Origin: Folioceros fuciformis
Taxonomy: Eukaryota
DNA length: 41,005 nt
Reading direction: 5' to 3'
NCBI GenBank assembly: GCA_049999805.1
Contig: JBNGIO010006272.1
Location: 147,638 to 188,642, forward strand
Below the pieces are notes generated by a model. The model was not told where the DNA came from, searched no databases, and saw only the letters and a program-made list of their open reading frames with translations. Positions 1,310 through 31,348 of the stretch are shown here, piece by piece. Each line of letters begins with the position of its first letter. The first letter of the stretch is position 1. Made by a program: the position numbers and the translations under genes.

Positions 1310-1331
1310 GGGTGGTGTTCAAAAAACACCA
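1310..1331 (-). other. Histone 3'-UTR stem-loop-like element
   Basis: mRNA sense TGGTGTT-TTTTG-AACACCA-CCC, about 52 nt after the H4 stop. GG...CC stem base, U-rich loop, followed by ACCC. The loop is 5 nt rather than the canonical 4. Confidence 0.55.
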
Positions 1332-1382
1332 TGATAGAACCGACAGAAATCTGCCGAGGTACCAACGGTAGCCCCGCTCTGC

Positions 1383-1730
<348 letters not shown>

Positions 1731-1906
1731 TCAAGCAAAGTTGAGGACTCCCGCCCAGCTCTCCGCTCTCCCACTGGCGGCCAAGTAGCGGTTCACTGCC
1801 AACAGAACGACAGCTCAAGAACAAGAGACGAAGACGAGAATTGGAGTTGCTCCCGGATGCTAGACAACACACAGCGCGAGAATGAGAATGGCGCCTTCGG
1901 TTCCGT

Positions 1907-3292: not shown

Positions 3293-3519
3293 ATGTAGCG
3301 CTTCTGCTGTGAGTTGTTTTAAGACGGACTCCTCAGGATGTAGTACTTCAAGCGTGAGCTCTGCTAAGACGGACTGGCAAGGATGTAATACTTCAGGTGT
3401 GAGTTCTTCTAACAAGGACTGGAAGAATGTAGCACATCCGGAGTGAGTTGTTCTACAACGGACTGGTAAGGATGTAGCCCTTCGGGACTCGGTTCTTCCA
3501 AAACGGACTGGTAAGGATC
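3293..3519. repeat. 45-bp tandem repeat, 5 units
   Basis: Unit starts at 3293, 3338, 3383, 3427 and 3472 (one unit is 44 bp). Shared core acggactgg(t/c)aaggatgtag. Confidence 0.9.
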
Positions 3520-4101
3520 ACATTTCTCCTGCTTAGCCCATGGGCAAGATCGCAGGCTTCACCGCTGAGATTCGATATTCGTTGCCACTTAAAGTCGCAC
3601 GTTTGATAGGCAGCCTATCATTGACAGCTCAGGAATAGGAGAGGTGTATTTCACTCCAGCTTTCGAACCATGAGCAAACTGCCACTCCTTCAAACCCTTC
3701 CATAATACTACCTGCCAAGCACGCACATTCGGGAGGCGTAAGTCTCTTTCACACTGTCCAGTGACGAGATTCCAGTGCAATAAAGAAATGTTGGGGCTGC
3801 CTCTTCCTAAGTTGAATGCAATCTACAAGCATGAACCCTTACCTTTCCTGAACAGCAGGTTCAAGTGGAACTGTCATTATGACTTCTTTCCCGCTATTGC
3901 GCACGAGCTGCTACTATGTCACCACCAGCACCAGAGGCCTAGAAATTGTTGAATCGTCATCGACGTACCTCACCTATATGAAAGCCAGAGGGTTAGAGAG
4001 TCTTCGGATAACCTGTCTCCACGGTCAAGATCTTTGAGCACATTAATCCGACAGCATCAGCAAGACAAATGAAGAAAAGATGTGCTCACTGTGATCCGAC
4101 A
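3511..4101 (-). pseudogene. Inverted, degenerate partial duplicate of the SYT6 gene (end of one exon, two exons and two introns)
   Basis: Minus strand reads VRYVDDDSTI...DIVAARA...KEVIMTVPLEPA (3973-3843) and ...LKEWQFAHGSKA...SMIGCLS*...CDPY (3711-3511), matching SYT6 exons 10396-10530 and 10656-10886. Contains frameshifts and stops; intron sequence is also similar. Confidence 0.85.
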
Positions 4102-4401
4102 CCCGGAAGCCCTGTTGCAGGCTTAGTTCAGGCATGATCCAGAACGAGTATGACACGGCCACAACGAGTGAATCAATGGTCTCAGCCTTGTGAATTCACC
4201 CTTCCAAAAATCGAACGGCCCGGAAATTCAACCGATTCTCCAGACCAAACTCAACAACAACCATCTCCTCACGACGAAGAACCGGTCCTGCCAGCAGAAG
4301 AAAGTGCAGCCAATCCTGCCGGCAGCATAGATCCCCGCATTCCCCCTAAGCACCTTTCTAATGGTTGCGGTGTCTTCTGACGAGAATTTCACCATCACGC
4401 A

Positions 4402-5419
4402 TTAACTTTCGAAATTCCAGCCTCTTTCCTTCCTCCTCTTTATTATCTCATGGGCCGTGTTGAACACTCCATTTGTAGCCTTGTTACATACAAAGCAAAC
4501 CTTGCTCCTTGCGTGATGCTGCAGCAGATAACACAAATCAGCCCACAGACCATGATCCACAGAAAAAAAAGACAAAAGAAACAACACCAGAGGCAAAACA
4601 GCACAACCAACCAACCTTCAGAGCACAGTGCTCGCAGAAATAGTGCTTGCAAAGAGTTACAACAGGCTCCTGAAAAGGCTGCCGACAGATAAAACAGGCA
4701 AAAGGAAGGCCATCGTCATCCACCTCCTCACCATCCTCCTCCTCCTCATCCTCGCCCCCCGACCTTGCCAGCTTCGCCTTCCGTTCCTTCTCCTTCAACT
4801 CCCACTCCTTCTCTATCTGCCACCCCGACTTGTAATCCCCTCTGTCATGCATGAACTTGCAGGAATCCCCGTACCCGCAGTACCCAGTCTCCTTGTAGTC
4901 CTTGCAAATGTCTGGCTGGTAATCAAATCTAACAGATGACCTAATATGGGCTGAAGCTCTGAGCGGCCCATGCGCACCTCCAGCCTTCTCCCCGGCGACC
5001 GTCTGCTCCCTCCGAAACCCGGCCTTGTAATCTGTATAGCCGTGAATTCCCTTATAAATCTTGCTCTCCGTGGACGCCTTCCCTTTGAGCGCATCCTCCG
5101 CCTGCCTCAGCACCTTCTCCCGTATAGCCCTCGCATCCCTATCGAACTCCGTCTCCGTCTCCCGGGTGGCTGTGGCCTTGCTGTCGTTCTGCGTTTGAAC
5201 CTCCTTCGACGACTCGAAGAAAAACGTCCCCTCCTTCCTCTCCAGCTCCCCGTCCTGCTCCTCCGCTGCCGTCCTCCCGGGTCTCCTGGCCACCTTAGCC
5301 TTGGACACTACGGTAGCAAGGCCTGCTCCAGCTGCATCCTCCTCCCCACCCTCGTCCTGAGTCCTCTTCCGCAGGTTCTTGTTGCGCACAGACTTCTTGA
5401 AAAATGTGCAAGCTGCCAT
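4402..5419 (-). CDS. CWC24: Spliceosomal CCCH + RING zinc finger protein (CWC24/RNF113A); exons 5419-4616, 4518-4402
   Basis: [51 protein letters not shown] (CCCH) and [12 protein letters not shown]...[23 protein letters not shown] (RING). One GT-AG intron. Confidence 0.95.
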
Positions 5420-5830
5420 CGCACAGCAAACAGAGCCGTCAGAAACCACGCTCCTCCTCAGTAACGAAAAAACACACACACACAGGCATACTTTTCTGAG
5501 AAGCCTCAGCCTCCGGTGCACCGCCTGGCTGCTGGGTTTGCTCGTCCATGCCAGAATCTCCGAGCTGCCGACGATGCGTCTTCAGGAGACTGACGTATTG
5601 AACCCTAGATTGCCCAATTTACTTACTCGCAGCACTCTCTTTAGGCACCCATCTTTAGTCTACTGCGATTTATTTCAGTTTTATTTATTTTCATTTCATA
5701 AAATACTGTGAATAATTGGGACACCACGTATAGGCGGGTTGGCCTCGCTAGGCTCGCATGTTCAGACCAACAAGGTGCAAACATGTGTAGATCTGCGTAG
5801 CCCTGACGGTGTTGTGAGGCCAGGAAACAC

Positions 5831-8192: not shown

Positions 8193-11100
8193 ATGAAACG
8201 AGGTGTGGCAGCAGGAGTGATGGCAAGCGGGCAGGAGATGTGGCGGGACCTAGTTGAAGAGAAGCCTATGCTGCCCTATCTCCTTCCGATAGTCCTGTTT
8301 GCATGGTTCGTTGAGAGATGGATAGCTCCTCTATCAAATTTGATACCTTTGCTGGTCATTGCTTGGGGAGTTCTTGAGGTACCGGAATTTTGGTCGGAGG
8401 CTGTTCATGCAGTTTCACGTGCTGTGTTTTTCTGATCATGATTTTCAGTTGAAGTCCTTAATATGTTTGTGTTCACCGCTTCTTCAGTATGGAAAGATAA
8501 AACGTAAGCAGACCATAGAAGAACTCTATCGAAGATGGCAACGTCAGTTTCAGTTAAATCAGGTGTGTGCTTTAATCTGGGTGCCGCTTTGGCTGTGAGC
8601 TATGTTCCTGCGTTCCGAGTCACACGAGTGTTCTCGGATTGTAAATCTTATACATGGGCTCAGTTATGGCTCTCCTGTGACAGCCAACCACGTCACTGGA
8701 ATCTTGCGAGTGGCTGAACAAGCTCTGGTTGACGGTGTGGCCCAATTTCTTTGAGCCGAAGATTGTTAGGAAACTGTTGAAGACAGTGCAGGTGGGGTCT
8801 CGAACTGCATTCCAAAATTCATATTCAGATTGAGGATATTGTACAGGGTTTTCAGCTGATTGCTCTCGTTTTTTGGAGCAGAAGAGAATAAAGGAGAAGC
8901 GACCAATGCCTATTGTGAGTTGTAGCAGACTTCACATTTTTAAGCCTCCACTCCAATTTTGTGATTGGCTAGTTCTCATTTGTGTGTAGTGCTAATGACG
9001 CCTTTGCGGTCACAGAAAAGCATTGAAGTACAGGATTTTTCACTCGGCACGGCTCCTCCAAGCTTAAGTCACATCCATTGGACCACTGAAAATGGTGTGG
9101 TGAGTACCTATTAAAGTAACTGTCTGCTGGTGCTTTCCCTGACCTTGCTGCCTGGGTAGGTTGTTCCTCTGTTGTATTCCAAGTAGGTTTTTTGTTTTTC
9201 TTTCCGTTGTGGAGGTAGGTTGAAGCTTCTCACGAGGCGCTAGTGTGTTGAAGGGGCTCAGTGTGTTTCACAATGTGCAGGCTGCCTTAAATATGTCATT
9301 TGACTGGGTAACCAATGAGATGAGCATCCTTCTTGCAGCAAAGTTGGCTGGCCCACTTAGAGGGAAGGTGGCACGGATTGTGATCAACAGTCTCCGCATA
9401 AAGGGCGATGTATGTATATAGCTCTACCAGGGATTTGACTAGTCTCTTGAGTTTTCAGTCTTCCCCAATGGGCAGAACTTGAGCGTCTTTGTCCTCCCTT
9501 TCAGCAGCGTGCAAAGTTTGCTATTTGGCATGATCAAGTTCTGCATTGAATCTGTATCCTAACACTTGGGGCTCCTGTTTTGTAGTTGCGAGTAGTGCCA
9601 ATTTTGGACGGGATGGCTGTGTTATACTCTTTTTGGACCCTACCAGAGGTGAAGATTGGCTTAGCGTTTGGAAGTGGCAACCAGACATCGGTCCCTGCAA
9701 CAGAACTTCCAGCTGTCTCGTCGTGGCTGGTTAGTGTGCCGGCAGCTAATTGTTGTTCTATTGTAAAGCTGGGACTCGGCACCTTTTCCAGTTGCTAGGT
9801 TGTGTGAGGTCTGTGGGTTTTGTGCAATGCTCTAATGGTTTTTTTTTGTATGGTCTGAAATTTAGGAGAAGCTGCTAAGAGATTCTTTGATTCGAACACT
9901 CGTTGAACCGCGGAGACGGTGTTTTGCGTTGCCAGCTGTTGACCTTAAAAAGCATGCAGTTGGTGGAATCTGCTCTGTGAACGTGCTTTCAGGAAAAGGT
10001 CTCAAGTTTAGACCAAACTTCAACAAGTCCAATTCTTCATCTGGGACTTCTTATGTTGGCCAGAGTTCAAGTATTAAAGTTACCAACCCGTTTGTTGAGC
10101 TACAACTGGAAGATCTTATGAGAAAGACACAAGTCTCCAAACAAGGAGGTGCATCTCCTACGTGGGCAGATAGTGACCCTTTTGATATGGTTCTGCATGA
10201 CAACACGGGCACTCTCAATATTACAATATGTGAGGCAGGGGCTGTCCATGTTGGATCTCTAGGAAGCTGTCAGATCAAAGTGAGCACAACACCTAACCAA
10301 AAGGCTTGCAGATGCTCTCAGCAGCAAGTTAGAATTGTTCTCGGCAGAAAAGACAGGATAATCATAGTCTTTCTCATCCTCTTGCTTGGATGTAGATGAG
10401 ATACGTGGATGACGATTCAACTATATTCTGGGCTGTGGATGTCGATGGTGGCATAGTCGCAGCTCGTGCGGAACACTGTGGGAAAGAAGTCAAAATGACT
10501 GTTCCACTTGAACCTGCTGACTCAGGAGAGGTAATGGTTCATGCTTTTAGATTGCATCCCACTTGGAAGAGGCATCCGGTACACTTAGTAACTGCACTGG
10601 AAGTACTGGACAGTGAGAATGACACTTTCTGCTCCCAACTGAGGGTTCTGTGCAGGTGGTAGTACGGTTGGTTTTGAAGGAGTGGCAGTTTGCAGATGGT
10701 TCGAAAGCCGTAGCAAATTATACTCCATCAGCTTCTAGTCTGCAGCAGTCGATGATTGGCGGCCTATCAAGTGTGGCGCCTCTGACTGGTAGGAAGATTC
10801 GAATCACAGCAGTTGAAGGCCGCAATCTTGCTCCCATGGACAAAACAGGGAAAAGTGATCCCTACCTCAAGCTTCATTATGGAAAGGTTAGTCTCTAAGT
10901 GGCCAGTCACGATCAGGCTGGAGTGCTTCCTTGCGTTATGGTCTCTTAAGGACAACTGTCTTGTGATGGCTCGTTTTGTGGTTCTTGGAAGTTGGCAGGC
11001 TTATGTTTGTACCAGCTCTGACTTGGATGAGACAAAATCATTGAGATGTTGGGAGCTTTGTTGGGTGTGGATCAGACTGTCAGGAAAACTAAAACCGTCA

Positions 11101-12335
11101 ATCAAGACCTCAATCCAGTGTGGAACCAAAGCTTTGTGTTCCACGAGGTAATTGGAGAGTATTTAAAGCTGAGGTGCTATGATGCGGACTGGTTTGGGGA
11201 CGAGAACCTTGGAAGTGCACGTGTGAATCTTCAAGGCTTAGAGGATGGTAAAGCCAAGGAGGTTTGGGTACCTTTGGAAAAAATCAAACAAGGAGAAATC
11301 AAACTGAAGATCGAGGTGGTAGATCCTGGGTCTGAATATGATGACTCTCAGGTAACTTGCGTAACTTTATTTTGTTCTCGCTTTATGTGATGCAGTACGG
11401 TATTGCAGTCCTGACTGGAAATTTTTCTGTTATGTAGAATGGCCGTATGGAGGAGAACGGGACACTCTCAAGTCGTGGCGGGATGGTAGAGATTGTCCTA
11501 GTGGAAGGTAGAGACTTGATCGCAGCCGATTGGGGTGGAACCAGTGATCCTTATGTTAGTGTCCGATATGGGAACACCAAGAAGAGAACTAAGGTATGGT
11601 CTGTGCTTTGTAAGGAGGTTTGTAAGGAGGTTTGCCCCCTTAGTTCACCCAATTTGAAGATGTGCTGGAGTGTGGCCAGTGCTGATTTTTGTTCTTTGGC
11701 AGGTGGTTCACAAAACATTGGCGCCCCAATGGAATCAAACCGTGGAGTTCTGCGATGACGGAAGTCCTCTGGTACTCCATGTGAAAGACTATAACGCCAT
11801 AATGCCAACCACAAGCCTTGGTTATTGCGAGGTTGATTATCAGAGAATGGGCTTCAACAAGACTGAGGACAAATGGATTCCCTTGCACAGAGTTAACAAG
11901 GGAGAGATTCGTGTACAGATTACACGGCGAGTTGCAGACAAGGAATTGAAGGCAAATGTTCCTGCACCTTCCAAAAACGTGCAGTCCACTGGAAACATAA
12001 AGCTTCAAAGGACTTCAGGAAAAGTAAGTGCACCCCAAACTCCAAGCAGGAGATCTTGTAGCAGCACTTTCTGTACCGATATTTTTCATCACCGTCCTCC
12101 CAGTGGATGGCGCATCTGACACTTGAAGTGTTAAGTGCAGATTCGTGCTTTGATGCAGAAGGTACAGGCTTTAGCGGAAGAGGAAGGGGATCAAGATGAA
12201 ATCCGGCAGATGCTGGAGGAATTGGAAACTGTAGAAGAGGAACGGGAATCCTTGGCTTTGCAGCTGCTGAAGGAGAGGGACTTGCTTGTGGGCAAGGTGA
12301 AGGAACTGGAGTTAGCCATGAACGGGCTAATCTAA
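8193..12335 (+). CDS. SYT6: Synaptotagmin-like protein (N-terminal TM, SMP, three C2 domains, C-terminal coiled coil), SYT6/SYTF type, ~14 exons
   Basis: LAWFVERWIAPLSNLIPL-type TM; ESCEWLNKL; LPEVKIGLAFGSG...PATELPAVSSWL; LVEPRRRCFALPAVDL; C2 motifs GKSDPYLKL, NQDLNPVWNQ, GTSDPYVSVRYG, KTLAPQWNQ; acidic coiled-coil tail; TAA at 12335. Confidence 0.9.
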
Positions 12336-13047
12336 GAACTGATCTTGGTATCCCTGGGAGTAATCCTGGGAGTACTAGCACTCCAAGGCATTCCACTGAA
12401 GCTGTCAGCCTCTTTATATCTGGAGCATTGCTTGATCAACCCCCAATGGTTCCAAATTGTTGGTTCAGCAAGCCCGGGATAACGGATCATTCTTTTGCGA
12501 CGTGCAAGAGCTATTCTGGTTAGTTCCCGCAGGATATTGCAAGACCCTAGGTACTCTGCGGACGCAGAGCGCCCTTCAATAGTTTCTCAGCTAACGTCTG
12601 ACGGAGGCGGTGACCATTGTTTGGTTCCATTCACTAGTTTGTGAGCCGTCTCTTGTGCACTCGGTCAGTGTTTTGACATTTTTGACAGCTCTCCTTCAGA
12701 AGAGCTTTTGGAAACGTGTTGGAAACGTTGAAAACACAGATCAATGTTTCCAGCGTAAGGCAAATAAATCGAACAGATAGAAACAATGAGTTAAAGACAC
12801 CAGAGGCAAGAAATATTTTAAAGGAATAGGAGTTGACGACAGCAGAGTAGTCTTCTAGAAGGCAAATATATTCAAGTACAGAGAAAGAGAGAATGAGTTA
12901 AAGACGGTCGTCTACAAGAAATAGGAGATGCTGTGGAAAAAGCATGAGCTGAAGACATAAAAGTAATCTTCAAGAAAGAATATTGAGTTAGGTACATCAG
13001 AGAGGTGAAACGAGGAGTTAAAGCCATCAGACCTAAGAACGATGGTC

Positions 13048-13266
13048 AGAAGCAGAAGAGGGTCACAAGAGAATGTGAAGGGCAGGTGGAACAACAATGG
13101 TGGGACGCGGAGGAGGGTCACAACAGATTGTGAAAGNNNNNNNNNNAACAACAATGGTGGGACGCGGAGGAGGGTCACAACAGATTGTGAAAGGCAAGTA
13201 CAACAACAATGGTTGGAAGCAGAAGAGGGTCACGAGAGAAGAAGGTGAAAGGCAAGTAGAATAACA
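13048..13266. repeat. ~55-bp degenerate tandem repeat overlapping the LLG stop codon
   Basis: Recurring gagggtcac...gtgaaaggcaagta.aacaacaatgg units, at least 4 copies, interrupted by an N gap. Confidence 0.8.
13137..13146. other. Assembly gap (10 N)
   Basis: Run of N flanked by an identical 47-nt sequence (13090-13136 and 13147-13193). Confidence 0.99.
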
Positions 13267-13959
13267 GTAGCGGCTGAACCCCTTATGAGAGGAGCTGCGC
13301 TACTTGGATGTGGTGCTGGAGCAGGAGCGGGCGCCAAAGCAGGACACGGCAACCCATTGTCTCTGTCTCCAAATTGTTGGCAAAGTGTTTGAAAAAATCC
13401 AGGAGGATAATTGCCAGAATAATCGAGGTAGCTGAAAAACCGCGTAGAGCAGTCAGTGGTGTCGTCGTCCACGTAAACAACGTAGACAGGGCAAAGGAAG
13501 TTCACGAGGGCAGTGCAACAGCCCATTGCAGTGTAAGTAGTGGTGTTGCAGACGCTTGTAATAGGAGTGTAGTCCACGCCGGCAAAGTTTAAAGAGCACG
13601 CTGTTCAACGGAGAAGAAATGAGCTTCCAACATCACAAGAGCAATCTCAGCATTCAGAAACGAACCAGGTGAGAGAACCAACGTGTCTTTGACTGCAGCA
13701 ATCGTCGCTGAGAAAACACAGCGGCATCACGCCCTGTCGTCACGAACAGGCCCCGCGGTTCAGCCATCGGAAAAGGACGTGGAATCACACAATACACAAA
13801 CGGTCTCAACAGGTTTCAGTTCTCGCCAGCCAGATCTTTACCATCCCAGGACGAGGACGAGGACTCTGAATCAGCTCCCACCCCCGGGCTCAAGGCGAGA
13901 AGCAACAGAACGGAGAGGAGAACGAGGCGGCCTGAATCAAGATGGAGCGTCAGAAACAT
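13230..13959 (-). CDS. LLG: LORELEI-like GPI-anchored protein; exons 13959-13842, 13733-13683, 13600-13230
   Basis: Signal peptide (RLVLLSVLLLLALSPGVGA), RRLLQSKT|PCSLNF, 8-Cys domain (DYTPITSVC...CC...CP...DCSTRFFSYLDYSGNYPPGFF...C...CP), AP-rich linker, SSA omega region and hydrophobic tail. Confidence 0.85.
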
Positions 13960-14347
13960 AATGCACACGCTAGGCGGGAGCTACGACGCCTCACAGCAGG
14001 GCAACAGTGCAAAGGGGAAGTAGGATCTGGATTCGAAGCAGCCACCAAGATGCGCGGACGATGCCATAGCCCACGGCTGAAGCCGCTCAGTTCTTCCGGA
14101 AGACGCGCAGAACGGTACGCGGGTCAATGTCGAACCTCCGGGTGATCAACCAATGCCTTGTGATTCGTCCATAAAATAGATGACTCCGACGTGTAGTGTA
14201 AAGCTTGAGAAATCCATCCAATACCAGGCTGGAGAGGCGTGAAAATGAGAAACTTCGTGCTACAAGGGAATGGAGTCTGCGTGCTTCAGTAAGTTCGTCT
14301 TTGGAGTCTTTCGGTGCCCGGAAGCAATCTGCTGCGGGCAGCGCGCT

Positions 14348-15235
14348 ATGAGGCAGTGCTTGCTGCGGTCGGCGAGATCCTTGTGCGGGGCGCAGGCGGC
14401 GGCGGGGAACGTTGCTGGCTGTGCAGCATTTGCATTTGCAGCTGGAGGAGGAGTGAGCGAGGGAGGTTTAGGCTTGTTGCAGCGGCGGCGCCCGCATGTC
14501 TCGTTTTTGCGGACGGTGGCGGGGTGGGACGGAGTAGGGATCAGCTGGCGCCGGGAGCTGGCGCGGCCCTGCTCCGAGCTGCAGCAAGTGAGGGGGCTGT
14601 CGTGGAAGAAGCCCAAGGCAGAGAAGCCGGTAGGGAAGAAGATCGGGGCGCCGCGTGGCCCGCTCTGGAGGACCAGGAAGTCCGTGAGCAAGGAGGTGGT
14701 GCAGGCGGTGCAGGAGCTGAAGCGGGCTCATGTGCGGAGGGAGGAGGCGGAGCTGGCGCAGGTGTACAAAACCCGCGTCTCGCGGTTGCTCAAGATTGAC
14801 CTCATCGGGGTGCTGCACGAGCTGCAGCGGCAGAACGAAATTGAGCTTACCGTGAGGACGTTCCAGCACATGCGGAAGGAGGCATGGTACAAGCCTGACG
14901 CGTTTCTCTACCGGGACTTGCTGGATTGTCTGGCGCGCAACAAGGCGGTGGCGAAGTTGGAGGAGGTCTGGAGCATTTTGGAGTCGGAGACCACGGCTGA
15001 GCTGGTGAATTGGACCGAGCTGGTTGGCGGATATCTTAGAAATGGCATGTTTGACAAGGCTGTGGAGGCATTTGAGAAGATGAAGGCGTCCGGCATTGAG
15101 CCCGACCACTTCACCTACTCCATTTTGATCAAGGCTTTGTGGAAGGCAGAACAGTTTGAAGTTGCCTCCAAGTATAGGGATGAGAGGATGAAGGCTTTTC
15201 CGGAAATGGATGCCAGTCTCAGGATCCCCGCCTGA
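14348..15235 (+). CDS. THA8L: THA8-like short PPR protein, intronless (upstream in-frame ATG at 14270 also possible)
   Basis: PRGPLWR...SKEVVQAVQELKR, SRLLKIDLIGVLHELQRQNE, WYKPDAFLYRDLL and PPR motif GIEPDHFTYSILIKAL. Arg/Ala-rich organellar presequence. Confidence 0.85.
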   Translation: MRQCLLRSARSLCGAQAAAGNVAGCAAFAFAAGGGVSEGGLGLLQRRRPHVSFLRTVAGWDGVGISWRRELARPCSELQQVRGLSWKKPKAEKPVGKKIGAPRGPLWRTRKSVSKEVVQAVQELKRAHVRREEAELAQVYKTRVSRLLKIDLIGVLHELQRQNEIELTVRTFQHMRKEAWYKPDAFLYRDLLDCLARNKAVAKLEEVWSILESETTAELVNWTELVGGYLRNGMFDKAVEAFEKMKASGIEPDHFTYSILIKALWKAEQFEVASKYRDERMKAFPEMDASLRIPA

Positions 15236-15604: not shown

Positions 15605-18600
15605 TTAGTGCTGCCTCCGGCGATACACGCCATCACGGATTTCCAGTTTTTCCTCAGAGATAAGACGGGCCAGGAAGCTCTGGAGTTGCGGCAAAGTCTT
15701 GTCGTATGGAGGGTCAGACACGAACATCTGCATGGAGAGTATTCCAAAGTCAAGATTGCTGGGCGTCATCCGTGAGATGGAAGGAAACGCGAAAAAGAAT
15801 TTACCTTGAGCATGTTGTGGATCCTATCCAGTGCTAGAGACTCGAAGTTTGTTAGCATTCCCACCACATATGACTGCACCAAAGGAAATGGTTAGGTCCA
15901 CTAAGCTGAGGGCAGCTGCAGCGTCCAGCTGAGTCAGACAACAGACCTCATATACATTCATCTCCTGCTGCCACTGATCTTCCACTGATGCCACAGCACT
16001 ATCCCCTTCCTCGTCTCCCAGAAGAGGAAGTGCTGCAGCACCACCCATGGAAGCCACGCCGCCTCCAGCATCTCCAATGGTTTCAATGATTGTGTACACC
16101 AGCTCTTCTTCATTTCCTCCTCTGGATTCTATGAGGACCCCCTACACAGCGTTGCACAATTTAGAGTAAGAACGCTTTAAGAACTGGGTGGCTGCCATGC
16201 AGAGCAGTGCTGTAAGAGTCACCTGATTGACCCAGAGCATGATGCGCTTGCGTAAGGAGCTCACAGACACACCAACAGCCGATGCAAGGTCTGCTGCTAG
16301 CCACCTGCATTCAAGACAACAGGTGAAGTTCATGTATCCATGACAGCTTCATTGCTTACTGTGGCACTGGATCCTACCTGGACTGTTGTTCAAACTGCAT
16401 GATGATCGCAGCATGAACTGGGGAGACAACATATTGGGCTGATCGATCTTCAAATTGCAGCTCCAGCTGGAATGCAAATATGCAACAGAACAGCCACAAG
16501 TCTGAGGAATAAACCTCCAAGAGTCTAAATCAAGAAGGCAAACTCTGGAAGGAAACTCGACAAACCTTGACTGTGCCCAAATGTTTCTTCCACTGTAGTT
16601 TACGAGGAGCCTTCAAGGCATGATATCTCTCTGCATAGCTGTCAAGTAGCTTGTCCACAGCTTCAGGTACCTTAATTGTTTCAGCCTGTTGTTATGGTCA
16701 TCGTGCCATGTGACTTGTAAGTTTGACTTACCTTAGCCATGTCAAAACACCACCAGGATAAATTCCTTCCTCTCACACTCCTCAAAACCCAACCGAAGAC
16801 ACGAAACAGGTTCACACATTGCATGGCGTCATAGTCACCTGAAATGGAGGCCAGAAAAGAGCGGAAATTATGGATGCATCAACAATATCCAATGAAAGAC
16901 CTCCATCTGCAGCTCCAGCTGACTCGATCCTTTCAGGCACAGACGCTGTTTGTACTGGAGTTGCTTGTCTGAGGCGATTTTCAGAGAGCACAATCGAAGC
17001 TGCAGACGTTCCTAAAGCAGTATCGAGCCCCGTACCGATTCCAGGAGGAGGACCAGGTGCCAGTGCGCTGCCAATGGGAGCCTTGATATTGGAGTTGATC
17101 CGCTTAGAATCCGCTACATCCTTCAGCATGATCTCACAGCTATGCATGTTGTGCTCTCCAAACCGCAACTATTGTTGGAAAATAGGGAAATCAGCAAATG
17201 TAAGAGGTCTCTTGCAATTGCACAAACGTAAAGGAATGTAAAAGTAGAGTGCAACCTTCAGCAGCTCCAGTGTGCGAATCTCTCGGTCTGTATCATAGTC
17301 AGACTTATTAAGCAGCTTCTCTGCCAACATAACCCGGTACTCATTCACAAAGAGCTCTTTTGAGCCATATATGCCGACCAGCATACTGATAATATCCATG
17401 AGTCTTCGGCTTTTGCTTGTTCGTGAAGGATCCGCGTCAATAGGATCAGGCTCCCACCTGGCACCAACAAAGAGGAATCAGTGTTTGTGAGAGAACATAC
17501 ATCAAAATGCTACCAAATGATATAAACATCCACCTTTCAGCAGCTGCCCAAGCCTCTTCACCGTCGACATCACCATCATCTTCACTGTCAATGTTGTCCA
17601 CAGCAGACACACCCCTACTCAGTTCTTCAAACAAACTCTCTCCCACAACACCTGGTACACTGCCGCTGCCTCCACTGGTATCATCAGTGAGCATAGTCAC
17701 TATGCACCTAATAGTATCCTTCCTTCCCCGTAAATACTCCTTGATAGGCTCGCCGACTGCCTCAAGTACCACTCCCGTGGGGTCCATTGTACGCAAAGCT
17801 TTTATGGTTGACACATACTGCAGCAAAATATCCGTTGTTGCTGCACCAGCAGTCAACAGCCGTTGGCGCAATGCAGATCGGAAGGAGTGCACCAGCTTCG
17901 AATGCTGGCCAGTATTTTGCAAACACTTTTGTAGGTCTTCAATGGCTGCCATGCTGCTCACGGGCAAAACTTTTCAGCTAAACAAGGAAGTACTACAGCG
18001 AGCTTTAGACTTCAGAAAAAAAAAAACTTATTAGAATGGCAAACAGCAGATCAGCACCTCTCGGGGTAGTCAACAATGATGTCGAAAAGCTCACTGATCC
18101 TCAAATCTCCAAGTGTCTCGTATGCAAAAAATTGGAGTCGTAATTGCCACCGAATGATCCGCTCATTTGACACATCTCTACCTCCAGACACCAGTGGAGA
18201 TAATAATGAAAGTGGACCACGAAACTCATGAGTGCTAGGAGCCGAAGATGCCAGAATGACGGATATGAAACACAGGGGGACAGCCTGCCAAGAGATATAT
18301 TAGGTTCAATAACTCGTACAATGGCAAAAATCCAAGAAACTATGAAACCTGGCAAAAGGTATTGCAAAGTAGGCAAGGATATGAACCAACCTCAATCCAC
18401 TGACATATGGGACCCAAAACAGGCTTCTCATAATGCTTATCGGCAACAGCCAGGATCTTCTTCTGCAAGACACATCAACAAGGGCATTTGTGTACAACTT
18501 AGCCCAATGACTTAGGGGCCTCAGTTGCAAGACTGGCTGAAAGGTGGATAAGCTTGTTGTCCGACGTACAAATAGATACCTTTAAGAGGGAGTATACTGC

Positions 18601-19967
18601 TGACGCATAGCCATCTTCGCTCATTGCAGCAAATCCAAGTTCTCGAAGGCATCGCACCACATTGCCAATTCCCATCACCCAAGCTTCACCAGCAACGTTA
18701 ATGATTTCCTCCATGGTGGCCCCCGCACCAAGCTTGTAGTGGCCAGCAGGATAGTTGATCCCTTCCATCTCCTGCACAACATCGTCTTCATCTCCCACCG
18801 TTCCCTTCTGATGGTCATGAGGACTTTGGCCCATAACATACATTTCTTCTGAGACTCTAGATGTTCCCCTGCTACTCTGCTGGCTTTCCATCTCTTCGTC
18901 CTCATCAGCGCTAAGTGCTGCATCTAGAGGAGTCGATTCACCATCCTCTTCACTCTCCCCACTTGCTTGAGAACTTCGTGACTGGTTTTTAACCAACTTG
19001 CTGAATTCATCCAGTCGTCCCTTGAAGTACAAGTTTAGTATCTCTGCACAGAACATCTTTGTGCTGAGCGTTGCACCAACTGCGCGATACTGAACAAACA
19101 CACCTGACTGCTCAGGCATTTGCTTCGCAAACGTACCAGAAAAATATTTTGAAGCACTTGCAAGGAGAAGTGCAGTCACGTTGGTTTGATACTGTGAGAG
19201 CAAATAAGAGAAATCTTGAGAGCGTGCAGGTCCCTCATCTGCAGCTTGCAACTTGGGCCTCATGGCAAGGACCAAGACTGCAAGGCATGCCTCTTGAGAC
19301 AACTTGACAGTGCACAACTCCGAAAGGCTTTTTTGAAGAGCAGATTGCACCCATCCATCGAGCTGCATCAAATGTCAGGGGTCAATCTTTCCTCCGCCTG
19401 AAGTGGACCCGGAATACCGCAGCACAAATTCCCAGCAGAGTTGAGCGCAGCACAGCATGTTGATGGTAACCAGCCATCCAGCTGCAACAACATAGAGCAG
19501 CTGATCACGGTTCCTCCTCCTCTCTTCTGAGCACAAAATGCACAGCTGTAGAGGCAATGACAACTTGCCTTGGCCAACCCAGCAGCACTCCTCTGCGCTT
19601 CTGCCATCAAGTCAGTGAAATCTTCAAAATGACTCCAAAACCTCGAAACGTGCTGCTTGAACAATTTCTGCGCCAAATCCGAAACCGCATTGAAAAGCAC
19701 GGCCTTGTCAGTCACAACCAAAGGTTCAAAAGTCCCACCCAACCGAATCCTGACCTCCAGAGAGTCCATGAAGTGCCCGGATACGAGATAGCCCATATCA
19801 TGCTCGCAGAGCAGCTCCAGGTTCCGGCGAAACTCCCCGTTGCAGAGCTCCTCTGCCTCCTGCTTGGATAGAACCTCCGAAGCCTCAGCCTTGGAGAACA
19901 GGGCGCTGGCATGGCGGGAATACGCCTGCCATGCATGTGCTGTGAGCACCAGCCGAACCTTGTCCAT
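15605..19967 (-). CDS. APC2: Anaphase-promoting complex subunit 2 (cullin-like), multi-exon
   Basis: RLLTAGAATTDILLQYVSTIKALRTMDPTGV...YLRGRKDTIRCIV, WEPDPIDADP, GIYGSKELFVNEYR, RFGEHNMHSCEIMLKDVADSKRIN, PRKLQWKKHLGTV, LDRIHNMLK|MFV; TAA at 15607-15605. Start codon 19967 is inferred. Confidence 0.93.
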
Positions 19968-20452
19968 CTCCCGCCACCACGAATCCAATCCACTCCGCCA
20001 GCCAACCTTCACCAATTCCAGCTCCCGAAACCTACGTCTCTTTCAACCAAGGCCCCAAGGAGGCGGAAACGCTTCGCCGCTGCCCCTGGAAATATTGCCG
20101 TGTGAACGGGCCGAGAAGGACGAGATCTTGCGAGATGGAACACAAGCTTGCCATACCCTTCCGTCGCCGAATCAGGCTGGCCGTGAATTTTCCACTGCAC
20201 CTACACATTGTCGGAATGAAATTTTTGAGCCTGGTGTCCCGCAATTTCTCCCTGCAAAGATAGGGGGCAGGAAATGCATCGATCCATGGCTCTTCAGTCC
20301 GCATCCGCCAAGGACTTCGTGTACTGCGTCGCGTGATCGAGCGCAGGGATTAGGGTTGTGCGGTGATGGATGGTTGCCAGAGTTGGGAATTGTATGGCGA
20401 TCGTGGTCGCAAGCGGGCATGAGGAGAAACAGCATCGCGACTAAGGGAGTAG

Positions 20453-23946: not shown

Positions 23947-25663
23947 TCAGGAAATTAGATTTGATCTCCGGGACCGTAAGAAAGCATCCAAACGATCCCA
24001 GAATTCTAGCACTGCCGTTCTATCTTGATGCCGCTTGTGCCTACTCAGCTGCAAGTCCCATGACCTATCGTTAACAATTTAATTATTCATACCCACCCAC
24101 AGATAAAAGACAAGGAACAAGCCATGAACAGAAATATGTGTGACCAGTGTCTACGGGCTTACGGATATGATCTTCACATTCCACTTCCGTACCGCTTTAG
24201 CCGACTCCACACTGTCATCCTCAAACCTGAGATGCACTCCCAGGGCTGCACCCACACAATAAGATGGATACAGGACCCTGGCTGACGGAGAAGACAAGAA
24301 GCACGAGCATATTATTAAGTGATGGTGTGCACTTACTCCGGTCGAAGATTTCGGCGTGATCCTTGAAGGGCCAATCCTTGAACTGCCATTCCTTCCCTAG
24401 CACAAATACTGCAACCACTCGTTCCCAGTCCTTGGGCGAGAGACCGGAAGGCTTATCCCTGACCTCGTACTTGATGGGGTTCTCTCGCCCAATCTTCCGT
24501 CTAATAGAAAGCACTTCAGTCTTCTTCTTGGTCGGGTCCGGAGGCACGTAGACGCCATCTTCAAGGAACTCCTTGGCGTTGCATGTGTTGAGCAGAGTCT
24601 GAGAAGCGCTGGGAACGAGGATAATGGGAACCCCCGGCGCGGATTCATGCCTCTGCTGGCCGTGGGCCGGCGCGGAGCCCATGGCGGGTCTGTGGTGGTG
24701 CTGGTGGTGAGGAGGCCTCTGAGCCCCTCTGCCGTGACCCCAGGAATCATGCTGCTGCTTGTGATTACTGCCATCATTGATGAAGCCCTGCGTTGGGTCG
24801 ATTCCAAGGTCTTCGGCATCAGTTCCCAAGTGATCCTTCCAGAAGGTCTTCTCCTCCAGGTCTGCATACCTGTGAGCGGACGGCTCCCCTCCTGGACCTG
24901 CTGCTTTTTCGGCCGCTCCACCGGCTACAGCTGCGGCGGGAGCATCCTTGGACCCACGTCCTGGCTGATGTGAATCGTTGTCATTGCGTCTCTTATCCTC
25001 ATCCCGCTTGCTCCCTAGACTTTCCAGAATGCTGCGAAAGCTCTTCGAAGGGCAGAGGAGAATGGTCTCCCTGTCCCGGACAGGCCGCTCCTGAAGGATA
25101 TCCGCCAAGCTGTCATACATCGACGAGGCCTCAGTGGCAGTATCAATGCTCCCCGCTTGATTGTCCAAAGACGCTGCCGCCGACGCTGCTACGTGCGAGA
25201 AACGGGAGCGCTTATGCGGTGGTCCATCCTCCTCCCCCACTCCCGCCGCGGCCGTCCCCACGGCGGCGCCAGCTGCTCCGGCCGCCGCCGTCAGCGGCAA
25301 ATCAGCTGCAGACGAGAGCGGCAAGGCAAGCGGAGCAAGCAACTCTATGGCGTCGTTGGTAGACACCCTGCCTTCCAAATAATCCTGCAACGGCTTGCGG
25401 TCGGTGAAGGTGACAATCTGCAACTTGAGGGACCTTGCCTGTTGCATATACTCGGTGTGCTTCAAGTTGGTGTTCTTCACAAAGAAGAGCAGCGACTCCA
25501 GAGTGTAGTGCCCGCCCTGCTTGTTCCCCGCAATCCGGTACGCCGTCTCCAAATTGGCCGGGAAGCGGTAGTCATCACCGAATCGCACCTCGCCGTCCAC
25601 CAGCTTGATGTTGCCAACATCGTTTCGAACCGTGTAGTCCCGCAGCAACCCCAGCGCATCCAT
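23947..25663 (-). CDS. CDC73: PAF1 complex subunit CDC73/parafibromin; exons 25663-24337, 24245-24163, 24048-23947
   Basis: MDALGLLRDYT...YTLESLLFF...DRKPLQDYLEG; VPIILVPSASQTLL; DWERVVAVFVLGKEWQFKDWPF; RFEDDSVESAKAVRKWNVKIIS|LSRHKRHQDR. Confidence 0.95.
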
Positions 25664-29383: not shown

Positions 29384-31348
29384 ATGGCCGTCCCGTTGGT
29401 AATGCGGGCTGCAGCCTTGGCGCCCGCGGGAAGGAGAGGAAAGCGCACGCCATCGATCTCCCCTGCCCTCGTGTCCTCCCTCTTCTTCCCTCCCCACCGC
29501 CTGAGCCTGCCCCAGCGGCTGGACGCACGCAGAGGTGCGGGCGGCCCTGGAGTGGTGAGCTCCGCGATGGCGGAAGATCTCAGGAACCTGAAGCTGGATG
29601 ACGGCAGGAAGGAGGATGCGGGGAACGGCTCTGCAGCGGATTCGTACGCGGCTCCGAGCACCAGCGGGAGCGGCCCGGTCGGTCCTGGCCAGGGGAAGAA
29701 GAAGCTGGAGGATTTGCGGTGGGAGAGTTCGTTCGTGAGCGAGCTGCCGGGAGATATCCGGGAGGGGGGCCCCGTGCGGCAGGTCTTGCACGCCTGCTAC
29801 ACCAAGGTGAAGCCCTCGGCGGTGGTGAGGGATCCGAAGATGGTGGCGTTTTCGGAGCAGTGTGCGGAGCTTTTGGATCTTGATTCGCGGGAGTTCGAGA
29901 GGGACGATGCGGCGGCCATCTGGTCCGGATCCAAGCTGTTGAGCGGGAGCGTGCCCTACGCGCAGTGCTACGGCGGGCATCAGTTTGGAATGTGGGCCGG
30001 ACAGCTGGGAGATGGCAGGGCTATCACGTTAGGAGAGGTTATGAATGACAAGGGGGAGCGGTGGGAGTTGCAGCTCAAAGGTGCGGGGCGGACTCCTTAT
30101 AGCCGAATGGCGGACGGGCTGGCTGTGTTGCGCAGTAGCGTGAGGGAGTTCTTGTGCAGTGAGGCCATGTTTTATTTAGGGATTCCAACCACCAGGGCCT
30201 TAAGCCTGGTGACCACCGGTGCCGGTGTGGAGCGTGATATGTTCTACGATGGGAATCCCAAGGTGGAGCCCGGGGCAGTGGTTTGTCGGGTTGCCCCGTC
30301 CTTCTTGAGGTTTGGATCGTTCCAGATCCACGCGGCCAGGAGGGAGGAGGACATGGTGCTCGTCAAGACCCTGGCGGATTATGCTATCCGGCATCATTTT
30401 TCTCAGTTCGAGAGCTTGCCAACTGAGCAGCAGGTGGAGCCGGAGACTACCGAAGAGGAGTCGGACGAGAGCACTAGCCCGCGGGTGGATCTGACCAAGA
30501 ATAAGTATGCAGCATGGTTTGCTGAGGTTGCTGGCCGGACGGCCCTCACCCTGGCGAAGTGGCAAGGGGTAGGGTTCACGCACGGCGTGATGAACACCGA
30601 TAATATGAGCATTCTCGGCCAGACCATCGACTACGGGCCGTTTGGGTTTCTGGACGCGTTTGATCCCAAATATACGCCCAATACTACTGACCTGCCGGGT
30701 CGAAGATACTGTTTTGCGAACCAACCGGATATTGGTTTGTGGAATGTTATGCAGTTGGCAACCACTCTCAATGCTGCAGGCCTCATTTCCACTGCAGAAG
30801 CACAGAATGTCCTGGGCCTGTATGCGAAGAAGTTTATGGAGTCATATCAACGGATCATGATGGCCAAAATTGGCGTCAAGGACTACAACAAGGATCTCTT
30901 GACCAAGCTTTTGAACAACATGGCTTTCGACAAGGTGGACTACACAAATTGCTTCCGAGCTCTTAGCCACATCAAGGCTTCCCCTGAAACTCCTGATGAG
31001 GAGTTACTTCTACCGTTGGGTGGAGTGCTTCTGGATCTGAGTAAAGAGCGGAAGAAAATCTGGATATCGTGGGTGCGCGAATACATAGCTCAGCTGCTCT
31101 CCGATGGAACTTCTGATATTGACCGAAAGGCCGCCATGGATGCTGTGAACCCCAAGTACGTTCTACGCAACTACCTTTGTCAGAGTGCCATTGATGCTGC
31201 TGAGAATGGTGATTATAGCGAAGTGCGGCAGCTGCTGAAGGTGATGGAGAGGCCATATGATGAGCAGCCAGGCATGGAGAAGTATGCTAGGTTGCCTCCT
31301 GCATGGGCATATCGACCAGGGGTTTGTATGTTGTCTTGCTCCTCCTGA
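29384..31348 (+). CDS. SELO: Protein adenylyltransferase SelO (YdiU family), Cys-type, intronless, with N-terminal organellar targeting peptide
   Basis: YAQCYGGHQFGMWAGQLGDGRA, ELQLKGAGRTPYSR.ADG.AVLRSS.REFL, GFTHGVMNTDNMSILG.TIDYGPFGF, NPKYVLRNY; C-terminus CMLSCSS. Confidence 0.97.
   Translation: MAVPLVMRAAALAPAGRRGKRTPSISPALVSSLFFPPHRLSLPQRLDARRGAGGPGVVSSAMAEDLRNLKLDDGRKEDAGNGSAADSYAAPSTSGSGPVGPGQGKKKLEDLRWESSFVSELPGDIREGGPVRQVLHACYTKVKPSAVVRDPKMVAFSEQCAELLDLDSREFERDDAAAIWSGSKLLSGSVPYAQCYGGHQFGMWAGQLGDGRAITLGEVMNDKGERWELQLKGAGRTPYSRMADGLAVLRSSVREFLCSEAMFYLGIPTTRALSLVTTGAGVERDMFYDGNPKVEPGAVVCRVAPSFLRFGSFQIHAARREEDMVLVKTLADYAIRHHFSQFESLPTEQQVEPETTEEESDESTSPRVDLTKNKYAAWFAEVAGRTALTLAKWQGVGFTHGVMNTDNMSILGQTIDYGPFGFLDAFDPKYTPNTTDLPGRRYCFANQPDIGLWNVMQLATTLNAAGLISTAEAQNVLGLYAKKFMESYQRIMMAKIGVKDYNKDLLTKLLNNMAFDKVDYTNCFRALSHIKASPETPDEELLLPLGGVLLDLSKERKKIWISWVREYIAQLLSDGTSDIDRKAAMDAVNPKYVLRNYLCQSAIDAAENGDYSEVRQLLKVMERPYDEQPGMEKYARLPPAWAYRPGVCMLSCSS

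Follow-up and report, generated by a model that had tools for sequence, protein, structure and literature searches.

An intronless histone H4 gene in the window (the whole stretch of 41,005 nt analysed here) is followed by a hairpin that, judged from its sequence, is very probably homologous to the histone 3' stem-loop of the green lineage. With moderate confidence, we favour the reading that this hairpin, the flanking U-A pair and the ACCC tail included, truly represents an inherited stem-loop of that kind and is functional today.

The H4 coding sequence lies on the minus strand at 1383-1694 and encodes 103 amino acids followed by a TGA stop codon (1385-1383). The translated open reading frame matches PDB 'Histone H4' chains along its full length (E 1.8e-62), and it is the only histone gene in the 41-kb window. 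A spacer of 52 nt read from the sequence (1331-1382, minus strand) separates the stop codon from the first G of the stem-loop at 1314-1330 (minus strand), which was assigned from the sequence, from its being the sole pattern match in the window and from its fold. The 5' arm GGUGUU (1330-1325) and the 3' arm AACACC (1319-1314) enclose the loop UUUUG (1324-1320), and an ACCC tail (1310-1313, minus strand) abuts the stem. The plus strand from 1310 to 1331 reads GGGTGGTGTTCAAAAAACACCA, corresponding to U-GGUGUU-UUUUG-AACACC-ACCC in the mRNA from the minus strand. In agreement with the initial annotation, which had described a hairpin with an ACCC tail about 52 nt past the H4 stop, the element is found exactly at this distance in 1310-1331. 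The extension to 7 bp that had been proposed is also possible, as U1331, the final base of the spacer, can pair with A1313; RNAfold forms this pair in addition to the six stem pairs and a U1324-G1320 pair on top of the loop. The folding energy of the hairpin 17-mer is -6.1 kcal/mol, or -5.2 kcal/mol for a structure of 6 bp with a 5-nt loop. Position, stem base and tail all agree with known histone stem-loops, as had been suggested, and the deviations that had been listed are likewise present: the loop has 5 nt, one U more than in the moss-like form described below, and CUAUCAU, the sequence on the 5' side, lacks A-richness. On sequence comparison, the 5-nt loop is the sole real deviation from the green-lineage form.

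The pattern GGTGT-N7-ACACC occurs only once on both strands of the 41 kb, at this hairpin, with 0.04 occurrences expected; at least one match was present in 4 of 100 shuffled windows, and the N6 version of the pattern does not occur in the window. For the 61-nt stretch, the fold z-score provides little evidence when taken alone (-1.55, with 16 of 200 shuffles folding equally well). A covariance model (R1) was built from 12 green-type histone stem-loops with four-base loops, none of them from the window (alignment A2), in which the bases after the stem are ACC, ACA or GCC. The model was limited to members with four-base loops because a MAFFT alignment of 21 stem-loops with variable loops split the stem. 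With filters off, R1 gives a single match below E 1 in the window, which scores 26.4 bits (E 3.3e-4) and extends over 1304-1338 of the minus strand; the runner-up reaches 10.3 bits (E 2). The score of the window hairpin is comparable to those of natural variants with other loop lengths that lie after histone genes and were not used for training (L029, 26.3 and 24.4 bits; L027, 25.4; L002, 22.4; L018, 22.2; L008, 31.9). In an alignment of 54 distinct stem-loops, 100% of the cells pair and compensatory changes occur in 4 of the 6 pairs; its covariation score was reached by 0 of 500 shuffles, in an alignment fitted to the model, which favours structure.

The animal-centred Rfam model RF00032, proposed earlier as a check, assigned the hairpin 12.1 bits (E 4.5 on 401 nt), below the gathering score of 34, and no Rfam family reached its gathering threshold in the window. 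This low score is uninformative, since canonical green stem-loops also fall below 34 bits (L005, 21.1; L034, 19.6), as do the two hairpins of L029 (18.7 and 17.5), while RF00032 did not match L015, L035 or L002 even with E allowed up to 10. The kinship with the histone 3' stem-loop claimed in the initial annotation is upheld by the identity of the stem, by the R1 match and by the presence of the same stem after other H4 genes.

These other genes were found by scanning metagenome contigs with the H4 protein of the window, which yielded 598 pattern matches, of which 490 were confirmed and the best 80 kept. Among these best 80 of 490, a 6-bp GG...CC hairpin is present within 150 nt past the stop codon at 53 of the 77 loci with at least 100 nt of downstream sequence, and in the 150 nt upstream at 6 of 79. 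The GGTGTT/AACACC stem follows the stop codon at 14 of the 77 loci from the same best 80, at distances of 27-120 nt, a range that includes the 52-nt spacer of the window. Most of these 14 loci are GC-rich and encode an H4 of the algal LKVFLEN form; two alga-like loci (L005 and L034) read GGUGUU-UUUU-AACACC-ACCC. Animal-like H4 loci among the best 80 carry GGCYCU/AGRGCC stems. A U before GG that pairs with an A after CC is common to the window and many green-type loci. The likeness to the chlorophyte form, pointed out in the initial annotation, is thereby substantiated, the GGUGUU/AACACC stem being found in alga-like H4 loci, in moss-like loci and in Cycas.

At 17 plant-type loci among the best 80 of 490, the encoded H4 protein, of the LKIFLEN form, is 100% identical to that of the window. 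GGUGUU/AACACC is found at three of them (L015, L035 and L039, the latter two being alike), and these are also the only ones of the 17 matched by R1. L015 reads U-GGUGUU-UUUG-AACACC and L035/L039 read U-GGUGUU-CUUG-AACACC, located at +31 to +33 in DNA of 0.40-0.41 GC; we call them moss-like, a label based only on the plant-type H4 protein and this GC content. When an HDAC exon of L035 was used to look for homologues, the matches were animal HDAC6 proteins and a single one at 96%. The moss-like hairpins fold at -5.3 kcal/mol, similar to the hairpin in the window, whose loop UUUUG equals the UUUG of L015 with one U added in the T-run. The stem-loop is missing at the other 14 of the 17 loci, which are mostly AT-rich, and this counts against a functional stem-loop in the window.

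The window departs from the green-lineage type, with its four-base loop, in having the five bases UUUUG. Among green-type stem-loops after histone genes at alga-like loci, loops of 3, 5, 6, 7 and 9 nt occur, so that a 4-nt loop is perhaps no strict rule in the green lineage; from these sequences, loop length seems to be free there, unlike the fixed 4 nt of animals. Loops other than 4 nt, in GGUGUU/AACACC or GGUGAU/AUCACC stems followed by ACC, were observed after H4 and neighbouring histone genes on GC-rich, alga-like contigs (L002, L008, L018, L027, L029 with two, L003 and L004/L006). In L004 (2546-2578; the same sequence as in L006) the hairpin lies 74 nt past the H4 stop in antisense orientation: read on the H4 strand it has GAA as its loop and UCUC as its tail, and read on the opposite strand UUC and ACAAAG. 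This hairpin could be part of a convergent gene or serve both strands.

The initial annotation had started from the premise that land-plant histone mRNAs are without a stem-loop system. This view is outdated: the system has been reported in non-flowering plants by PMC13130582 (Genome Biol, March 2026) and by the preprint 10.64898/2026.10.14.759114, and on the content of these two sources the general phenomenon is not new. PMC13130582 used full-length nanopore reads from 20 species, with no liverwort or hornwort among them, and describes histone mRNAs that are mostly poly(A)-less in Chlamydomonas, Physcomitrium patens, Adiantum capillus-veneris and Cycas debaoensis. In the sections drawn on here, SLBP is given as present in Chlamydomonas, Physcomitrium, Adiantum and Cycas debaoensis and as absent in Selaginella and all angiosperms, an RF00032 stem-loop is reported for 33 of 51 poly(A)-less histone genes, and only 6-4-6 hairpins were extracted. 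In its Table S6, 'No' is entered under stem-loop for several Physcomitrium genes whose share of poly(A)-less reads exceeds 0.9. The 16-nt stem-loops of the Cycas debaoensis histone genes are listed in its Table S9, where all 27 stem-loops of genes with 65-100% poly(A)-less reads begin with GGUG, compared to 0 of 14 low-ratio genes. GGUGUU-NNNN-AACACC, with a loop that is mostly UUUU, accounts for 14 of the 27. In the preprint, bryophytes and gymnosperms are described as having stem-loops in which diagnostic positions are conserved, and mosses and seed plants as having SLBP; it states that the SLIP1-binding motif was not found in SLBPs outside animals, and it warns that stem-loops with 'different loop lengths' may be missed. 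Its main text nowhere uses the words hornwort, liverwort, Marchantia, Anthoceros or Selaginella. A brief literature search on the tolerance of SLBP for loop size returned nothing useful.

Compared with the land-plant stem-loops of PMC13130582, the window's stem agrees at 12 of 12 bases with the form most frequent in Cycas debaoensis, and the difference lies in the five loop bases. The elements are also alike in their U-rich loop, in their closeness to the stop codon of an intronless core histone gene and in folding energy, the window hairpin falling within the range of the Cycas genes with 65-100% poly(A)-less reads (-5.1 to -10.1 kcal/mol). The window differs in its 5-nt loop and in a lineage outside the 20 species of that study. 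With the green-algal palindrome of Chlamydomonas and Volvox (cited in PMC13130582 and in the preprint 10.64898/2026.10.14.759114) and with the alga-like loci it shares the stem, the ACC(C) tail and a pyrimidine before GG, whereas its H4 protein has the land-plant LKIFLEN in place of the LKVFLEN of the alga-like loci, and the purine-rich downstream element described for chlorophytes in the preprint was not recognised in the window. The metazoan RF00032 element is similar in its 6-bp GG...CC stem, U at loop positions 1 and 3, ACCC tail and position after the stop codon, but has GGCUCU/AGAGCC as its stem, with a different inner part, and a loop of 4 instead of 5 nt, and the window lacks the AAA 5' flank. 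The metazoan system comprises SLBP, the U7 snRNP and a cleavage complex; in the literature covered, no U7 or downstream element was found described for plants, and an Rfam search of the window for U7 snRNA gave no match.

A putative downstream block, GGGGAUCUAUCGGCCGUCUU, lies at 1283-1302 on the minus strand and was delineated by alignment with blocks 3' of the L015 and L035 stem-loops. The arrangement GGGAU .. UCG .. CUCUU/GUCUU is loosely common to the window, L015 (1560-1580) and L035 (2872-2895), and the shared block is not purine-rich. Such a block could be a plant downstream processing element; as only three independent sequences are involved, it is a lead and not a finding.

Transcription of the region was evaluated with contigs from one public run (X1), which give no strand, ends or levels; that X1 represents RNA follows from its contigs skipping GT..AG introns. 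The H4 3' UTR had no cover in the runs X2, X21 and X22 of relatives. One spliced contig of 1945 nt covers 475-1868 without interruption, with 0 differences and 0 gaps, and also covers 242-377, skipping the introns 162-242 and 377-475. Because of this perfect match, the six-T run and hence the 5-nt loop are no assembly slip. RNA is thus present for at least 680 nt past the hairpin, which counts against a functional stem-loop; it could represent H4 read-through, polyadenylated forms or the 3' UTR of the neighbour. For the main 3' end of H4 the contig is uninformative, as few read-through reads suffice to bridge the region. The neighbour is a convergent gene of the Tmemb_14 family, whose last two exons lie at 252-627 on the plus strand (Pfam PF03647, E 2.3e-5 and 2.4e-8; GT..AG introns skipped in the RNA contig). 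About 750 nt separate the stop codons of the two genes, which are joined by the single spliced contig; their transcripts therefore overlap or read into each other.

At its other end the contig stops at 1868, so that the H4 mRNA probably has 1695-1868 (minus strand) as its 5' UTR. On the same strand, at 1914-1908 and about 40 nt upstream of the contig end, there is a TATA-like ATAAATA, and transcription presumably starts near 1868. Exact matches to the plant histone promoter hexamer, octamer and nonamer were not found upstream of H4; a reverse octamer with one mismatch is located at -348, and CCAAT occurs at -150. The 700 nt past the hairpin contain no AAUAAA on the H4 sense strand, only AAGAAA and AGUAAA near 1120-1112. 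Since plant poly(A) signals are loose, the absence of AAUAAA is weak evidence.

The window has about 50% GC, introns of 79-136 nt and about one gene per 3-4 kb; the Anthoceros genomes described in PMC7027989 and PMC8075897 have a GC content of 49.6%, introns that are short and densely packed genes. Besides H4 and Tmemb_14 it encodes a CCCH/RING zinc-finger protein (3390-5580, minus strand) and a multi-C2-domain protein (9600-12200, plus strand), both with introns confirmed by RNA contigs, a short P-type PPR protein without lineage mark (14249-15235), an APC2-like protein (16800-20000, minus strand), CDC73/parafibromin (24221-25663, minus strand) and SelO (29384-31348, plus strand). The closest named relatives of CDC73 (Marchantia, Riccia, Calypogeia and Sphagnum) share 49-50% identity with it and one further protein 58%, while for SelO some relatives reach 75-78% and named land plants of all groups 63-72%. 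In a quick, midpoint-rooted tree of 35 hand-chosen rows out of 120 listed, the CDC73 of the window and the 58% protein fall outside liverworts, mosses, ferns and seed plants and beside zygnematophyte algae, with 89% support. A non-seed land plant is a plausible host, and a hornwort is our best guess from the protein trees, the 50% GC, the short introns and the gene density, with a lycophyte, some other unsampled lineage or a streptophyte alga as further candidates; a protein atlas returned nothing beyond 'SelO'. The window also contains a short N run (assembly gap) in a directly repeated segment at ~12912-13300, with the same peptide flanking the gap, and low-complexity purine-rich repeats at 1-113, within an exon farther upstream in the region of the Tmemb_14 gene, and at 4719-4761.

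Three other explanations of the hairpin have to be weighed. It seems rather unlikely, though it deserves serious attention, that the stem-loop is inherited but no longer directs 3' ends, with the H4 mRNA being polyadenylated downstream. This could have come about through loss or silencing of SLBP, as in Selaginella, the angiosperms and Cycas panzhihuaensis, or because this copy is inactivated by its additional loop base. The RNA cover far beyond the hairpin, the 5-nt loop and the weak poly(A)-signal variants at 1120 and 1112 would fit such a state, although the bridging contig needs few read-through reads and is silent on the main 3' end, and natural green-type loops span 3-9 nt, so that one extra U need not be disabling. 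As reported in PMC13130582, Cycas panzhihuaensis is a case in which stem-loop-like hairpins or the gene for SLBP are retained with no poly(A)-less mRNA being made, and stem-loops are called 'Yes' in low-ratio genes of Selaginella and lettuce; since Selaginella and the angiosperms have lost the system according to that study, loss is common in plants. Against a relic, the U-A flank, the ACCC tail and all 12 bases of the stem are intact, as would not be expected of a 3' UTR that has long been neutral.

It is improbable that a histone-type hairpin has been kept for another role in a polyadenylated mRNA, be it as a stability or translation element or as an aid to pausing or termination between the convergent Tmemb_14 and H4 genes. 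The genes do converge, their RNAs are bridged by one contig and the palindromic stem folds on both strands; however, the U-rich loop and ACCC tail exist on the H4 sense strand only, the same element follows H4 in unrelated loci without such a neighbour, and no evidence supporting this role was found. A chance inverted repeat unrelated to histone stem-loops is very improbable. The low RF00032 score, the modest fold z-score and the shuffled windows in which the loose pattern matched somewhere in the 41 kb would be compatible with chance, but the hairpin is the single best match of an independent model, lies on the correct strand 52 nt past a histone stop codon and has a stem identical to published working stem-loops (PMC13130582).

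If the hairpin is a functional stem-loop, as we favour, SLBP would bind it in the nascent H4 transcript and, by analogy, cleavage would occur a few bases past the stem, either at ACCC or immediately behind it. This would leave a mature H4 mRNA that ends in the hairpin and carries no poly(A) tail, the state measured for histone genes of moss, fern and cycad; SLBP and histone mRNAs without poly(A) are reported together for these three groups in PMC13130582. The 5-nt loop may lower the efficiency and allow some read-through to downstream sites, and H4 might then have a dual mode, with hairpin-ended and read-through products. A perfectly kept 6-bp stem with its flanks, in a lineage placed by the tree outside mosses, liverworts, ferns and seed plants, would speak for long purifying selection. 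The more specific proposal that the gene stems from a land-plant lineage unsampled in the surveys examined, perhaps a hornwort, and that its five-base loop is fully functional is put forward tentatively.

If these predictions hold, the SLBP of plants would recognise the GGUGUU/AACACC stem together with its flanks and tolerate loops of 3-9 nt, a recognition looser than the animal rule. H4 would give rise to two kinds of transcript, one ending in the hairpin and one that reads through and overlaps the mRNA of the convergent Tmemb_14 gene. With regard to the two 2026 surveys, as far as their content was considered here, the points of interest are modest: a lineage beyond their coverage and a loop-length variant that standard searches miss. 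As searches fixed on a 6-4-6 hairpin or on RF00032 do not detect such a variant, published presence/absence maps may undercount plant stem-loops, and divergent ones are probably undercounted. The window would add one more streptophyte lineage, possibly the single bryophyte group absent from these surveys, that keeps the ancestral histone stem-loop, and its retention would support a stem-loop system that was present in the first land plants and has been lost repeatedly since.
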